In this document: positions 43,204 through 54,463 of the stretch, piece after piece
Numbering within the stretch: position 1 is the first letter of the stretch
How the letters are laid out: every line of letters starts with the position of its first letter
Source of the DNA: a virus
Lineage: Duplodnaviria > Caudoviricetes
Length of the DNA: 61,865 nucleotides
Virus record (IMG/VR): IMGVR_UViG_3300027747_000005
Span: 1-61,865 of that record
Reading direction: 5' to 3' (one strand)
Made by a program: the position numbers and the translations under genes
Notes under the pieces: generated by a model
What the model was told of the DNA's origin: nothing
Databases searched by the model: none
The model's input: only the letters and a program-made list of their open reading frames with translations

Positions 43204-43421
43204 GCCTTCACCTGCAGTAGGGCGGATAGAAGTGCGTTGCATGCGGTGATGACGGCGGCATCAGCGTTTGCTTCCTTCACTTCTACGATGGCTTCGATCT
43301 GCTTTAGGATCGACGGCTTGGACTTGCTGATGGACGGGAGTCTGATTGCATGGAGGGGGAGGTACGTGAGTGCCGCCGCTACCAGCACAGCGACGATGGC
43401 GAGGATCTGAACTGTCGTCAT
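43200..43421 (-). CDS. Small N-terminal TM protein (holin candidate)
   Basis: ILAIVAVLVAAALTYL. Confidence 0.6.
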   Translation of the reverse strand: MTTVQILAIVAVLVAAALTYLPLHAIRLPSISKSKPSILKQIEAIVEVKEANADAAVITACNALLSALLQVKA

Positions 43422-44359
43422 AGAACTTTGGCTCCGGGGATGAAGATGGTTACGCCGCCAATGTTTGCCTGCATGGTGTAGTTCATCAGCTTGTGCGGAT
43501 CGACCAAGCCCCAGCCGTAGACGTTGTCTCTGCCCTGTTCGCCAACGTCCTTGCAGGTAGTGGCTAGTGCCTTCATCACATCGCTGTGGTTGACGGTGCG
43601 ATCCAGCTTGTGCTGCGCGCTGATGTACAATGCCAGCACACCGGAGACAAATGGTGCGGCCATGCTCGTCCCACTCACAGTTGCATAGCCATCGTTCAGC
43701 CAGCAGCTTGTGATGTCCTGCCCTGGTGCGGCGACTGCAATCTCCTTGCCGCGGCTGGAGAATTCACAGGCAGCGCCGTGGCTATCCACCGCACCAACAG
43801 CAATCGTTTCCTGGTAGGCAGCAGGGTAGTTCACAGAACCCCCGTCGTTACCCGCGGCACAGACAACAATGATCCCGGCTGCAGCTGCCTCGCGGATCGC
43901 AGTGTGTACCCCATCGTCCGTGCGGCTAGAGCCAAGGGACATGGAGATGATGTTCACCTTTGCTTCGGTGGCATGACGCACAGCTTGCGTTACCCACTCG
44001 TTGCTCCCCATCCCGCTGTGTCCTAGCACTTTGAGGGAGAGGATTCGGGAGGCAGGAGCAATGCCCTTCGCCAGCCCGTCACGGGCGGCGATGATGCCAC
44101 TCACATGGGTGCCGTGCCCCAAGGTGTCATGCGCATCGGAGTCGCTTGTGAAGTTGCGGTAGTCGATGACGGCTGCGTCTAGGGCAGGGTGCTTGGCAAC
44201 ACCACTGTCGATCACGGCCACCGTCACTCCCTCGCCCTGCGACTTCTGCCAGAGGGAAGGGATTCCGTATGAGCAGACACCCCAATCAACTCCGTGCTGG
44301 AGCGCGCGCGGTGCGTCTAGGTTAACCCGATAGGGTGGAAGGTGGACGAACCCGCTCAC
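43418..44359 (-). CDS. Subtilisin-like (S8) serine peptidase
   Basis: VAVIDSG (Asp), HGTHVSG (His), AAGN, GTSMAAP (Ser). No signal peptide or full propeptide. Confidence 0.95.
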   Translation of the reverse strand: MSGFVHLPPYRVNLDAPRALQHGVDWGVCSYGIPSLWQKSQGEGVTVAVIDSGVAKHPALDAAVIDYRNFTSDSDAHDTLGHGTHVSGIIAARDGLAKGIAPASRILSLKVLGHSGMGSNEWVTQAVRHATEAKVNIISMSLGSSRTDDGVHTAIREAAAAGIIVVCAAGNDGGSVNYPAAYQETIAVGAVDSHGAACEFSSRGKEIAVAAPGQDITSCWLNDGYATVSGTSMAAPFVSGVLALYISAQHKLDRTVNHSDVMKALATTCKDVGEQGRDNVYGWGLVDPHKLMNYTMQANIGGVTIFIPGAKVL

Positions 44360-49808: not shown

Positions 49809-50867
49809 TCAACTAACAAATCTTTGTTCTCTTCCATGGCGTCTACCCAGTTCCTTTCTGAACATTGACCGGATCCAGCCGTTGAGCTTTTCGTTACCCG
49901 CGGCCCAATGAACGTAGTGATCGGGCAACTCGCTCAGCTTGTAGCCCGCGTACTTGCCCTTCAGTGGGTTGTTATAAGTGCCGACCGACCGGACGCCCTT
50001 CCACGTAATGTCAACGTCCTTGCCGTGAATGCGGCCCTCCCCGCGGCCATGTGTGTTGCGGCGCATCTCCTCAATGAGCTTGGCACTGGCGATCTTCTCG
50101 GCCTTCTTCGCCGCCTCTGCCGCAGCCAGTTCGTCTATCTCTTTCTGCGAGAGTGGAGACTGCGCCGCTGCTTTACGGACTTGCGCTTTGACTTCCTCGT
50201 CTTGCGAGGTGCAGAACATGTCCACGCTTGTGATGACTGTGTGATCCAGAGTTCCTGCTGTGCAGTCAACAATTTTGAAATGAGGTTTATCCGAACGCGC
50301 GATTGCAGCAATTCTGTCGGCAGCGGTGAGAAGATGTTCCCCGTCAACAACACCGGGGAGTGGACGAGTGGCTCGCCCAACGCACTGAAGCCAGAAGGAT
50401 CGGGAGCGTGTTGGTCGGGCAAGGATGAGGGTGGCTGTTGGGGGATAGTCGAATCCAACGGCAACCACTTGGCAGTTGACCAAGACTCTGGCCTGCCGGG
50501 ATTTGAAGGCTGCGAGTGCATCGGCTCTCTCCTCGTCAGGCATGGTGCCCCAGACACAGACGGCTGGGATTCCGTAGTTGCGGGTTAGGTATTCAGTCGC
50601 ACCCTTGGCTGCGAACACGCTGCCGGTGAAGAGGACGGTCTGCCCCTCCATCTCCTCGGCGGTGATCATGCAGGCGCGATGCAAATTACTTTCCTTGTTC
50701 AGTTCAGCGGCGAGCTTGGTCTGGTTGAAATCACCGCCGACAATGTTGACCTTGCTGAGATCCAGCGACTCCACCCTGCTCAGCTTGCAGATAGGCGGAA
50801 CTGACCATCCGTTGGCAATGGCCCATTGGAGGTCGTAGTTGCAGACTGACTCTTCGTAGAATTGCAT
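49809..50867 (-). CDS. SF2 helicase, C-terminal RecA2 half
   Basis: TVLF (IV), VLVNC.V...GFDYP (V), RPTRS...QCVGR.TR (VI); own AGGAG RBS. Confidence 0.88.
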   Translation of the reverse strand: MQFYEESVCNYDLQWAIANGWSVPPICKLSRVESLDLSKVNIVGGDFNQTKLAAELNKESNLHRACMITAEEMEGQTVLFTGSVFAAKGATEYLTRNYGIPAVCVWGTMPDEERADALAAFKSRQARVLVNCQVVAVGFDYPPTATLILARPTRSRSFWLQCVGRATRPLPGVVDGEHLLTAADRIAAIARSDKPHFKIVDCTAGTLDHTVITSVDMFCTSQDEEVKAQVRKAAAQSPLSQKEIDELAAAEAAKKAEKIASAKLIEEMRRNTHGRGEGRIHGKDVDITWKGVRSVGTYNNPLKGKYAGYKLSELPDHYVHWAAGNEKLNGWIRSMFRKELGRRHGREQRFVS

Positions 50868-51370
50868 GCTTCACTCCTAAGCATGGGTTTGCCATCCATA
50901 CGGAATGGAGTGGCGGTGAAACCAGCGACCATCGCTCCTTGGTCCTGGTAGAACTTCAGCATCTCAATCACAGGCTCGCTGCACTGCATGTGCGCTTCGT
51001 CAACTATGACGAGCGAGAATCCGTTAAACCGCTTGTATCGCTTCTCGCCACCGCGGCTGGACAGAAGCGTCTGCTTACTGGCGACCACAACCTTGGCGGG
51101 CCAGTAGTCACGCTCGGCAACGAAGTCAGCCATCTCAATGTCTGGGTCTGAGTCTGTGACCTGACGCACCTTGTCAGCTGCTTGCCAGACAAGCTCACGC
51201 ATCGGAGCGATGATCAGCGTGCGTCCTTCAATGCGGTCGGCCAATGAGGTGAAGATGACGGTCTTTCCCGCGCCAGTGAACAGGCCAACGAGCGTGGACT
51301 TCACACCGCGGCGCATGGCGTCCAGCAGCGATTCGATCACTTCAGTTTGGTAGGCGCGCAGTCTGAGCAT
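50780..51370 (-). CDS. SF2 helicase, N-terminal RecA1 half (DEAH)
   Basis: LR.YQ, TGAGKT, VIVDEAH, GFTATP.R.D. Confidence 0.9.
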   Translation of the reverse strand: MLRLRAYQTEVIESLLDAMRRGVKSTLVGLFTGAGKTVIFTSLADRIEGRTLIIAPMRELVWQAADKVRQVTDSDPDIEMADFVAERDYWPAKVVVASKQTLLSSRGGEKRYKRFNGFSLVIVDEAHMQCSEPVIEMLKFYQDQGAMVAGFTATPFRMDGKPMLRSEACNSTKSQSATTTSNGPLPTDGQFRLSAS

Positions 51371-51455: not shown

Positions 51456-51800
51456 TCAACCAAACTCTGAGACGAACTCTTCTTCTCGGGCCGGTTCCTT
51501 CTTGCCACCAACAAGCTGGATGGCATTGACGTTCAAAACGATCTTCGACCGCTTCTGGCCGTCACGCTCCCACACCTGCTGATCCAACTCACCTTCGACC
51601 AGGACAGAGGTGCCCTTGTTCAGGTAGTTAACGACAGCGCCGCCCTTCCAGTATTCGCAGTCCAGGAACAGCACCTTGCCCTCGCGGTACGGGTTGTTCA
51701 CGGCTACTGAAAACTTCACAACATCCTTCTCACCGACACGCCGAATGTCGGGGTCAGCTGTGATGTTGCCCATCAGAATCGTCCGGTTGTAACTAGCCAT
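51456..51800 (-). CDS. ssb: Single-stranded DNA-binding protein
   Basis: N...L.GN...DP, FSVAVN, KG..V.VEG.L...WE.DGQKRS, acidic tail. Confidence 0.92.
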   Translation of the reverse strand: MASYNRTILMGNITADPDIRRVGEKDVVKFSVAVNNPYREGKVLFLDCEYWKGGAVVNYLNKGTSVLVEGELDQQVWERDGQKRSKIVLNVNAIQLVGGKKEPAREEEFVSEFG

Positions 51801-52452
51801 TCGTCACCTCCTTGGTTTCCCAGCACTTGGTAAATTCCGCCTTGCAGCGGTCGTAGCACCCACGGTCAATCGCCTTCTCGCGAAGACGAAGTTCAACTGT
51901 CTTCATCACGTTCACTGCGGTGAAGCGATCCTCCGCGTTGGCGATCTCTGTCTTCCACATGGCCTCCAGCTGGAGGTTCTTGGGACTCACGCCAGTGGGC
52001 CGCTGCGGTGATCGCTGCGGAGCGGACTCCACCTTCACCGAATCACCGTCATCGTCGGACTCACCAGAGAACCCGCCTGTCAGTGCCATCAGCAGGGTCC
52101 GCTTGGCGTAGGTCATCGCCGCACCGAAACCCTGCATGTCACCCTTGGGGTTCACCAGCGGGGCGATCCCCGTGATGTATTGCCCCGTCTTGTGCCGCAA
52201 GGTTCCGACAAGCACCCACTGACCGGCGACCAGCCCAGGCCGGAAGTCCGGCAAGGCAAGTCCGTTCTTGGTCAGCGGCCCACGCAACGCATCGCAGCAG
52301 GTCGCATAGGACGAGAACCGGCTTTTGAAATGCGGGTTCGCAGCGTCTAGTTCAACGTGCTTGTATTCCGCCTGCGCCTTGGCCAACGCCTCTGTGAGTG
52401 CGCTGGTATCGGGCGAACAGCTTGGTCCGAGAATGTCATGCGAATCATTCAT
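51793..52452 (-). CDS. erf: ERF-family single-strand annealing protein
   Basis: AL.KAQ...NPHFKS.., Q..G.A.TYAKR..L...DDDG. Confidence 0.88.
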   Translation of the reverse strand: MNDSHDILGPSCSPDTSALTEALAKAQAEYKHVELDAANPHFKSRFSSYATCCDALRGPLTKNGLALPDFRPGLVAGQWVLVGTLRHKTGQYITGIAPLVNPKGDMQGFGAAMTYAKRTLLMALTGGFSGESDDDGDSVKVESAPQRSPQRPTGVSPKNLQLEAMWKTEIANAEDRFTAVNVMKTVELRLREKAIDRGCYDRCKAEFTKCWETKEVTNG

Positions 52453-53303
52453 ACTGTGATTACCTCCTCCTCCTGACGCTTCGCCCAGGCTGGGAACTGA
52501 AGCTCCGTGATCTCACCGGCATCTGCCGATTCGTACACGCCCGTCTCCCGGCGAAGGCGAACCTCCTCCATCACGCGGGTCATACGCAGACCAGCCTCCT
52601 CAACGATCTCTGTCGGCAGATAGAAAACGTGGACACCGTACGGAGCCATCGTCTGGACGAAGACGAACGGCATGCGGAAGTGAGGCATGCCGACAGCCTT
52701 GGCACCCTGCACGTACAGCCACTCCTGCTCCGCATATCCGAAGTCCACCGCACTGCGGTACACCTTGTCCCAAGTGGACGAGGTGGTCTTTAAGTCCCAC
52801 CACAAGCTGGGCGTGCAGCCGTCCGGTCGCACCTTGCAGCGATGTCCGTTCAACTCAAAGAACACCGACACCTGAGTCTCAGTGGTCTGCTCCACCAACG
52901 CCTTGGCGGCGGGGTTCGCAAGCAGATGATCCAGCATGATCTCCAGCTGCCAGCCTTCTTCTTGGTTGCAGTCGATCAGTCCCTTCCGGTCAGCCTCTTC
53001 CTTCCAAGCGTCGTAGGCTTTGCCCCGGCGGTGGCCGTTGCTGGCCAGCACCTCGGCGGGCGGGATGGCGAGAACGTCACTCAACTTCTTCCCCTCACAG
53101 ACAGCAGTGACGATGGTGTCGAACTTGCTGCCGGTGCGGGTTCCGGCGTTCCCTCCAAAGAGGGAGTAGCCTTGATCCATCCACCGCTGCGCCTCGCCCC
53201 CAAAGCGGGCGACTGAGTGCAGGTAGGACCGACCAAGGAAATCGTTCTGGCTGTGGTAGTCCGCATTGCTCATGCCCACTACCTTCCGTGGCAAACTGCT
53301 CAT
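52449..53303 (-). CDS. RecE/exonuclease VIII-like PD-(D/E)xK exonuclease
   Basis: MSN.DYH, CK.RPD, DLKTT, Y..Q...Y. Confidence 0.85.
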   Translation of the reverse strand: MSSLPRKVVGMSNADYHSQNDFLGRSYLHSVARFGGEAQRWMDQGYSLFGGNAGTRTGSKFDTIVTAVCEGKKLSDVLAIPPAEVLASNGHRRGKAYDAWKEEADRKGLIDCNQEEGWQLEIMLDHLLANPAAKALVEQTTETQVSVFFELNGHRCKVRPDGCTPSLWWDLKTTSSTWDKVYRSAVDFGYAEQEWLYVQGAKAVGMPHFRMPFVFVQTMAPYGVHVFYLPTEIVEEAGLRMTRVMEEVRLRRETGVYESADAGEITELQFPAWAKRQEEEVITV

Positions 53304-53545: not shown

Positions 53546-53641
53546 CTTGTGGTCCGCAAGTATAGCGTGGGGCTTGATGGATCCCAAAGTGGGGGTAATC
53601 TGACCCCCCTCAACCAGATCCACAGATTTTCCGAAACTAAC

Positions 53642-54463
53642 ATGACTCTCAGAGAGTTCGCGGAGGCTTACGCCCTCCAATCGGGGGCTAGCCCCGGATA
53701 CCGGGAGCAACTCGTTGTGCTGACCAAGCGACTCCCTTGGGGGGTGGCCGACTTGACCGTCAGCAACATCGACGCTTACCTGACCCAAGCTCTGAATCAT
53801 CTCGCCGCCTCCACGGTTCACAACCACCGCAGGATGCTGTCCACCCTGCGACGAGCCGCCCTCCGAGACGGCCTTGTAGTGGACGATTGTACACGCCCGA
53901 TCCGGCGTGTCAAGCACACCTTGCCGATGGTCCGCGCGTGGACTCATGACGAGATGCGACATTTGCTTTCTGTAGCCTCTGAGATGCCGGGGGGTACGCT
54001 CTACTGCCCGCACCGAATCCTGCTGCCTGCGTGGATTCTGGTCGGTTACAGTAGCGGCCTGCGGCTGGGTGACCTGCTGACCATTACCTACGACTCCCTG
54101 CGAGGGGATCGCTTGGCTACGGTTCTGCAGAAAACTCGCCAGCCGCATGTTGTCGTCCTTGACACAAACGCTTTGGAATCCATTCGCTCCCTACCTCGCC
54201 GCGGCCCGAAAATCTTCGGGGGCTTGGTCGGTCGGTCGCGGATCATAGTGGCTATGCGCACAGTCGTCAAGCGCGCGGGACTCACGGGTTCAGGCAAGTA
54301 CCTGCGGAGAGCTAGTGCCACTTACGCCCAATTAGCGGGCATTGATGCCACTGGACACCTGGGACATTTGACCCCGGGCATGAAGCGCCACTACCTAGAT
54401 CCAGTCATTCTGTCGGATCTGAAGCGTGCTGTGCCCAGCCTTCCCCTCGGGGGGGGGCTTTAG
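53642..54463 (+). CDS. Tyrosine recombinase/integrase
   Basis: GLRLGDL (R), QKT (K), KYLRR (K in place of H in HxxR), HLGH, RHY (Tyr). Confidence 0.85.
   Translation: MTLREFAEAYALQSGASPGYREQLVVLTKRLPWGVADLTVSNIDAYLTQALNHLAASTVHNHRRMLSTLRRAALRDGLVVDDCTRPIRRVKHTLPMVRAWTHDEMRHLLSVASEMPGGTLYCPHRILLPAWILVGYSSGLRLGDLLTITYDSLRGDRLATVLQKTRQPHVVVLDTNALESIRSLPRRGPKIFGGLVGRSRIIVAMRTVVKRAGLTGSGKYLRRASATYAQLAGIDATGHLGHLTPGMKRHYLDPVILSDLKRAVPSLPLGGGL

Follow-up and report, generated by a model that had tools for sequence, protein, structure and literature searches.

In the window analysed here, a viral record (IMG/VR record IMGVR_UViG_3300027747_000005; Duplodnaviria, Caudoviricetes) that is complete at 61,865 bp and has direct terminal repeats and a GC content of ~58%, a superfamily 2 (SF2) helicase is encoded on the minus strand by two overlapping open reading frames (ORFs), A and B, whose junction consists of an ATG, a 14-nt spacer and a second ATG. 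We consider it probable, at roughly 85%, that the pair is a two-subunit helicase, resembling Escherichia coli RadD and split in nature, a reading supported by the conserved split site, by selection on both halves, by a Shine-Dalgarno (SD) sequence and ATG belonging to ORF B itself, and by unambiguous two-gene junctions in relatives. A two-subunit helicase had been one of two proposals of an earlier sequence-only reading of this DNA, the other being a programmed ribosomal hop like that of T4 gene 60. In the mechanism that we propose, ORF A, carrying motifs I-III of the first RecA-like lobe (RecA1), would be translated and run into a 33-codon unselected tail, while ORF B would be started independently at its own AGGAG/ATG and would supply the last β-strand of RecA1, the whole second lobe (RecA2) and the C-terminal domain. 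The chains would then assemble by insertion of the N-terminal strand of B into the sheet of A, which would restore the ATPase cleft; the 14-nt spacer would act as a ribosome-binding site and not as a recoding signal, and small indels in it would have switched lineages between split and fused states several times. The features concerned are as follows.

50780..51370, minus strand: ORF A, 196 amino acids (aa), the N-terminal helicase piece up to Met163, with Walker A GAGKT, DEAH and motif III TAT.
50780..50881, minus strand: tail of ORF A, 33 codons out of frame, overlapping ORF B.
50884..50882, minus strand: first ATG, the codon for Met163 of the helicase and not a take-off signal.
50881..50868, minus strand: 14-nt spacer CTTAGGAGTGAAGC, holding the SD sequence AGGAG (50878..50874) and missing from fused relatives.
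50867..50865, minus strand: second ATG, the start of ORF B.
49809..50867, minus strand: ORF B, 352 aa, with the predicted last RecA1 strand (residues ~4-12), RecA2 and the C-terminal domain.
50865..50885, minus strand: 7-bp inverted repeat CATGCTT/AAGCATG, present, neither conserved nor unusual.

The sequence-only reading had given the letters of the junction correctly: the minus strand from 50885 to 50865 is C ATG CTT AGGAGTG AAGC ATG, within the context …GGC AAA CCC ATG CTT AGG AGT GAA GC ATG CAA TTC…, the AGGAG lies 6 nt ahead of the second ATG as described, and the first ATG is indeed followed by no stop but by CTT AGG, with ORF A continuing for 33 more out-of-frame codons to 50780. ORF B is offset from ORF A by 14 nt (+2/-1), and the start of ORF A at 51370, likely the true one, is consistent with relatives and with the fused relative P0007. 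Removal of 17 nt, from one ATG to the next, had been said to yield a continuous helicase, with the suggestion that relatives might lack exactly these nucleotides. The frame is restored by this removal, but it is restored by removal of 14 nt as well, and alignment showed that the fused forms fit a 14-nt difference best, since they carry two residues between the Met and FYE where the window has 14 nt plus ATG CAA. ORF A matched the Pfam families ResIII (1.9e-22) and DEAD (9.8e-14) and ORF B matched Helicase_C (6.4e-13), the translations showing motifs I (GAGKT), II (DEAH) and III (TATPFR) in A and motif VI (QCVGRATR) in B; with motifs I, II, III and VI, two RecA-like lobes and a fold matching RadD and XPB, the pair has the core of an SF2 helicase. 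Positions 272-427 of phrog_16, the PHROG 'DNA helicase' profile, aligned with ORF A and positions 428-700 with ORF B, and because the profile continues without interruption from 427 to 428, the two ORFs amount to one helicase cleanly cut. They are collinear with the single-chain homolog, with no loss and no overlap, and fused relatives align across the break.

Searching viral contigs with ORF B as the query yielded 45 loci (53-95% aa identity), and an A-like piece lay directly upstream of the B-like piece in all 45. The helicase was split at the identical residue in 31 of these loci and fused in frame in the other 14 (…RMDGTAM-RD-FYE…), with the layout of the window (first codon, 14 nt, ATG) present in 21 of the 31 split loci. 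Several split loci have junctions of an ordinary two-gene kind. In L016 an in-frame TAG stands five codons past the Met and is followed by an ATG; L018, L030 and L045 have short overlaps with purine-rich SDs ahead; L033 and L034 have an 8-nt gap between the halves; in L022, which is of the window type, the TGA of A overlaps the ATG of B (TGATG), and in L077 the halves are joined by an ATGA stop/start overlap. In L032, L035, L042 and L044 an ORF of 150-155 aa, here called X, is tightly packed between A and B. For some of these relatives (L016, L018, L022, L030, L045, L077 and the loci with gene X), two proteins are the only possible products.

Among 16 metagenome loci, a set that partly shares contigs with the viral one (e.g., L068 and L003), the 14-nt layout was found in 11, and one (L076) had a 17-nt spacer and CTG as its first codon; the other four comprised two loci fused through a 15-nt in-frame linker (L065 and L066), one distant fused locus and one without a junction. 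A contig from a metagenome-assembled genome (MAG) of Phycisphaerales had the layout of the window and contigs binned as Rubrivivax and Pirellulaceae were fused, the two relevant MAG bins giving only a hint of a Planctomycetota host. Within the best 120 listed protein clusters of a large protein database, 62 start exactly at the split site and 26 are fused proteins of ~500-516 aa with ResIII/DEAD plus Helicase_C. We also observed that gene callers place the start of ORF B 12-39 residues too far downstream in 31 of the 120 listed clusters (P0005-P0015 and others), probably because this avoids the 99-nt overlap with the tail of ORF A, so that database entries under-represent the true N-terminal strand. 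In the literature searched, which excluded subscription papers, no naturally split RadD-like or other SF2 helicase was described in phages.

The start signals of ORF B follow the split state. Of 21 distinct split junctions, 19 had an SD-like 4-mer 4-18 nt ahead of the B start, compared to two of nine fused ones; ATG or GTG occupied the B start in 21/21 distinct split junctions, and the equivalent site held ATG in only one of the nine fused sequences. [quoted passage not shown] Because the SD and start codon are tied to the split state and resemble the signals of the neighbours, the spacer is best taken as an ordinary ribosome-binding site for B.

Both halves are, on the evidence of substitution ratios, kept under purifying selection across the split lineages. 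For 14 pairs with synonymous divergence (dS) of 0.5-2, the ratio of nonsynonymous to synonymous divergence (dN/dS) was 0.04-0.20 in ORF A and 0.06-0.29 in ORF B, and no internal stop occurred in 23 A and 23 B sequences. Over the 33-codon overlap (21 pairs), the B frame was constrained (dN 0-0.08, dS 0.13-1.1), while in the frame of the A tail dN was about equal to dS (dN 0.03-0.20, dS 0-0.19). A selected function of the 33-aa tail of ORF A was considered, and it was rejected on this near-equality.

The split and fused states appear to have switched repeatedly, in both directions, through small indels in the spacer. The 14 fused viral loci grouped as one clade in a 49-row tree (Shimodaira-Hasegawa-like approximate likelihood ratio test, 90), for which two changes of state suffice; the outgroup of this tree consisted of three annotated phage helicases with branches of up to 7.6 changes per column, and because these are very long its root was not relied on. 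With database proteins added, a 167-row FastTree gave seven changes of state, and at least five were needed on a quick IQ-TREE tree of 57 rows from which the junction residues had been removed. The fused P0007, 83% identical to ORF B and with the junction DGKPL-RE-FYEE, was nested within the 9-row clade of the window with a support of 100, its lack of the 14 nt being deduced from the protein, since a look through the viral and metagenome contigs did not turn up its DNA. The fused L065 and the split L077 are 94% identical in A and 91% in B, and their junctions (L065, 1981-1995; L077, 1987-2000) differ by one G in a run of G; where L077 has GGAGG, ATG and the ATGA overlap, L065 has GGAAA and TTA. 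Re-fusion of a split gene seems the more likely direction at L065, since its linker, five residues longer, would be translated spacer. The SD and start codon of L065 have decayed, and the two loci form a ready-made natural comparison.

The break had been placed at the RecA1/RecA2 boundary, which proved approximate: it falls after motif III but in the model before the last strand of RecA1. In the AlphaFold2 (AF2) model of the fused P0007 (mean predicted local distance difference test score (pLDDT) 73.8, predicted template modelling score 0.60), the motif III strand (147-152) is followed by the cut (163/164) within a loop, then by a strand (169-174), a helix (176-181) and the second lobe. By alignment, RadD has ~13 extra residues in the loop where the helicase is broken, and this loop therefore appears tolerant of change. 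With the cut lying within the ATP-binding lobe and after motif III, the second chain would have to donate a strand to the first. When A(1-166) and B(1-235) were modelled as a complex, the interaction score (ipSAE) was 0.75, compared to 0.00 for the best control; the mark set for this score was reached by 58/80 solved complexes and 2/110 mismatched pairs. The runs had at least 88% of contacts in common, with a partner pLDDT of at least 81, and placed B residues 4-11 alongside A 25-31, the strand before the P-loop, touching A 148-150. The model thus supports the view that ORF B donates the last RecA1 strand. The split, its conservation, the selection on both halves, the start signals and the repeated changes of state are shown by the sequences; that the chains join and are active as an enzyme is inferred.

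Several points weigh against a two-subunit helicase and its proposed history. The stop of ORF A lies 99 nt past the start of ORF B, which means that elongating ribosomes cross the B start and that stop-start coupling of the type seen in L022 and L077 is unavailable in the window. The spacer has a constant length of 14 nt in 21 viral loci of the window type, a constancy that we can explain only by SD spacing and the rarity of indels. Of the 120 listed clusters, 31 have shorter N-termini and could not be classified, and one was counted as a fragment or as having a longer N-terminus; P0075 may be incomplete because its contig ends there. The approximately unbiased (AU) test speaks for repeated changes of state, since it rejected a single clade of the 20 fused rows (delta log-likelihood 417, p = 6e-6), but this grouping was named only once the tree was known. 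Likeness to single-chain helicases such as RadD may be the only reason why the complex model passes; since the helicase halves resemble solved single chains, its pass is a sign of likeness and no demonstration of binding. Finally, separate A and B products in this uncultured phage are something that we infer from its DNA.

The alternative that survives best, though we regard it as improbable, is that A and B are both functional without forming a joint enzyme, either of them working by itself or together with a different partner. In favour of such a role, the RecA-like domains of some helicases fold when isolated. ATP hydrolysis by SF2 enzymes, however, requires motifs of both lobes, and the immediate position of A upstream of B in every viral locus, the B strand placed in the sheet of A by the models and the return of lineages to the fused form all argue for a joint enzyme.

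A programmed bypass, in which ribosomes would take off at the first AUG, skip 17 nt and land on the second AUG to make the fused helicase as the only or a minor product, was suggested by several features, among which the sequence-only reading had listed the hairpin CATGCTT/AAGCATG. The stem is real, with seven perfect base pairs around a 7-nt loop, but nothing sets it apart. Its energy of -6.9 kcal/mol corresponds to z = -0.06, 88/200 shuffles folding at least as well; it is not used by the minimum free energy (MFE) structure of the 71-nt context, and each strand of the window has 43 perfect 7-bp hairpins with loops of 3-10. Four of the seven pairs come free, because CATG is self-complementary and occurs in two copies. 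Over 22 relatives (15 distinct junctions), the stem positions paired in 71.4% of cases, compared to 70.4% in shuffles, with 102/500 shuffles reaching the observed value, and across these junctions covariation was absent, with a double change at one pair. When 12 junctions were folded, the 7-bp stem was the MFE structure in the window only, L003 having a 6-bp version. In the closest relative, L067 (98.8%/97.4% aa identity), 4/14 spacer positions differ and two of the seven stem pairs are broken. The related proposal, in which the stem would mask the second start until it is melted by ribosomes arriving from upstream, is likewise unsupported, given these broken pairs and the missing covariation.

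The remaining observations that favour a bypass are the matched ATGs 17 nt apart with AGGAG 6 nt before the landing site, the occurrence of ATG at both ends in 19/22 window-type junctions, and the lack of selection on the A-tail frame in the overlap, which a bypass would also predict. Each of the features that recall gene 60 has a simpler source. Met163 is nearly invariant (at least 90% of 23 split plus fused sequences; fused consensus RMDGxxM), so that the 'matched codons' are a conserved helicase Met and a start codon, and the SD plus ATG are more simply read as a start site. Neither a stop nor a rare codon comes after the take-off site, where normal decoding of CUU would compete; the first codon is TTG in 3/22 window-type junctions (L036, L038 and L039) and CTG in L076; the stem does not exceed chance; and in close lineages the halves are separated by a stop-then-start junction or by an entire gene, which shows that the family needs no fused product. 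The gene 60-like hop thus finds no support, and we regard bypass as very unlikely. The same holds for a low-level hop in lineages with ATG…14 nt…ATG, which would give a two-piece helicase and a minor one-piece isoform from one locus; the evidence makes it unnecessary, and we give it scarcely any weight.

Still less credible is that A is joined to B by a programmed -1 (or +2) frameshift of the ribosome in the spacer. ORF B does lie in the -1 frame relative to ORF A, but in the window and 13 relatives a TGA in the B frame stands two codons before the ATG and leaves one open codon only, CCC ATG CTT AGG AGT GAA GCA TGC contains no slippery heptamer (X XXY YYZ), and no conserved downstream structure was seen.

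A frame break within a single-chain enzyme is the classic signature of error and would raise suspicion of an artefact of assembly or sequencing, or of a pseudogene inactivated only recently, but this reading is refuted, as far as sequences can tell, by the same junction length in 21 viral loci, 11/16 metagenome loci, the Phycisphaerales MAG contig and Logan contigs of four studies, and by the low dN/dS of both halves despite dS of 0.5-2 between relatives. These Logan contigs, from four runs of which one, X1, may be the source of the window itself, covered 50851-50904 with no indel, and the runs holding the sequence were labelled as freshwater, lake or drinking-water metagenomes. The earlier conclusion that the junction is no sequencing error is therefore borne out by independent contigs, and not by the symmetry on which it had been based. 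Run X1 also held a contig of a divergent co-occurring strain (91 substitutions/686 nt) with +1 and -1 indels 5 nt apart at 51055-51060, which form a compensated frameshift pair inside ORF A.

With the two-subunit helicase as the preferred reading, other features of the locus and its surroundings can be described. The C-terminal region of ORF B (49809-50000, residues ~290-352) carries the conserved motif NPLKGKYAG…LPDHY..WA, and the same region gave a weak sub-threshold match to PF12843 QSregVF_b (E = 0.0054). ORF X (L042:3534-4001; L032:1619-2071; also L035 and L044) sits exactly at the helicase break with stop/start overlaps on both sides, and its two versions, 45% identical to each other, have a coiled-coil-like look. 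It matched no Pfam or PHROG family, the best being a weak match below cutoff to the coiled-coil family HOOK (E = 0.0036); its look-alikes in the Atlas are unnamed, and tblastn found no homolog in the window (best E = 0.59). A homing endonuclease was considered for ORF X and rejected, given no resemblance and no endonuclease family match. Directly upstream of the helicase, 51456-53303 on the minus strand encodes a PDDEXK-like nuclease (DUF3799, 6e-10), an ERF annealase (1e-08) and an SSB (6e-18), and the run of nuclease, ERF, SSB and helicase looks, by its gene content, like a recombination/replication module. A 304-aa ORF at 53549-54463 on the plus strand, weakly matching Phage_integrase (E = 2e-4; 21.7 bits, where the cutoff is 27.1), is a possible tyrosine recombinase of this phage with its terminal repeats, and 43418-44359 on the minus strand is a subtilase-family gene (Peptidase_S8, 7e-55).

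If the two chains reassemble, nature has cut an SF2 motor and run the experiment itself. The cut is found in dozens of lineages, and with split and fused pairs that are nearly identical, a one-piece and a two-piece motor could be compared in assembly, stoichiometry, regulation and ATPase coupling; such pairs could also guide the engineering of split helicases. Split and fused states appear easily exchanged through indels of 1-14 nt in a spacer that holds a ribosome-binding site. For annotation the family calls for caution, many such genes being called truncated or 'Helicase_C only'.

Among known systems, the closest solved relative of the fused P0007 is E. coli RadD (YejH; PDB 6jde, 7r7j, 8h5y, 8h5z), an SF2 DNA repair helicase-like ATPase, which gave both the best sequence match among solved structures (E = 4.3e-26, residues 3-338) and the best Foldseek match to the P0007 model (E = 7e-19, 27-28% identity). 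RadD was also the top NCBIfam family (NF053632), but P0007 scored 134.7 bits against a curated cutoff of 720 and the window halves scored 71.6 and 59 bits; with P0007 so far under the cutoff, we call the protein RadD-like and not a RadD ortholog. The two have motifs I, II (DEAH), III (TATPFR) and VI in common, and in the window the helicase gene stands beside SSB and recombination genes; links of RadD to SSB and RecA have been reported. RadD differs in being a single chain.

The bypass of T4 gene 60 involves matched codons, a 50-nt gap, a stop after the take-off codon, an SD-like element and a stem. The window shares with it the matched codons around a short gap, a local stem and an SD-like element that precedes the landing codon by ~6 nt, and gene 60 likewise lies at the split of an enzyme, between the topoisomerase subunits gp39 and gp60. 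The window differs in having a gap of 14 nt instead of 50 and no stop next to the take-off codon; neither its stem nor its matched codon is conserved, and its relatives have ordinary two-gene junctions. The peptide encoded upstream of the first ATG, where bypassing of this type would have a nascent-peptide signal, is the conserved region of motif III.

Phage genes in pieces are familiar from Aeromonas phage Aeh1, whose NrdA is split by the mobE homing endonuclease gene, and from the split gp43 polymerases of T4-like phages. As in these cases, a single-chain enzyme is encoded by two adjacent genes whose products presumably reassemble, and the clade of L032, L035, L042 and L044 has an extra gene at the break. 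Gene X, however, has no endonuclease match, most lineages and the window have only the 14-nt spacer, and the helicase appears to have flipped its state repeatedly in both directions. The reverse gyrase of Nanoarchaeum equitans is an SF2 motor split into separate polypeptides and resembles the present pair in this respect. Such archaeal SF2 motors are split at the borders of domains or lobes, often with a long distance between the genes, whereas the two genes of the window are adjacent and overlapping, and the break is predicted to lie inside RecA1.

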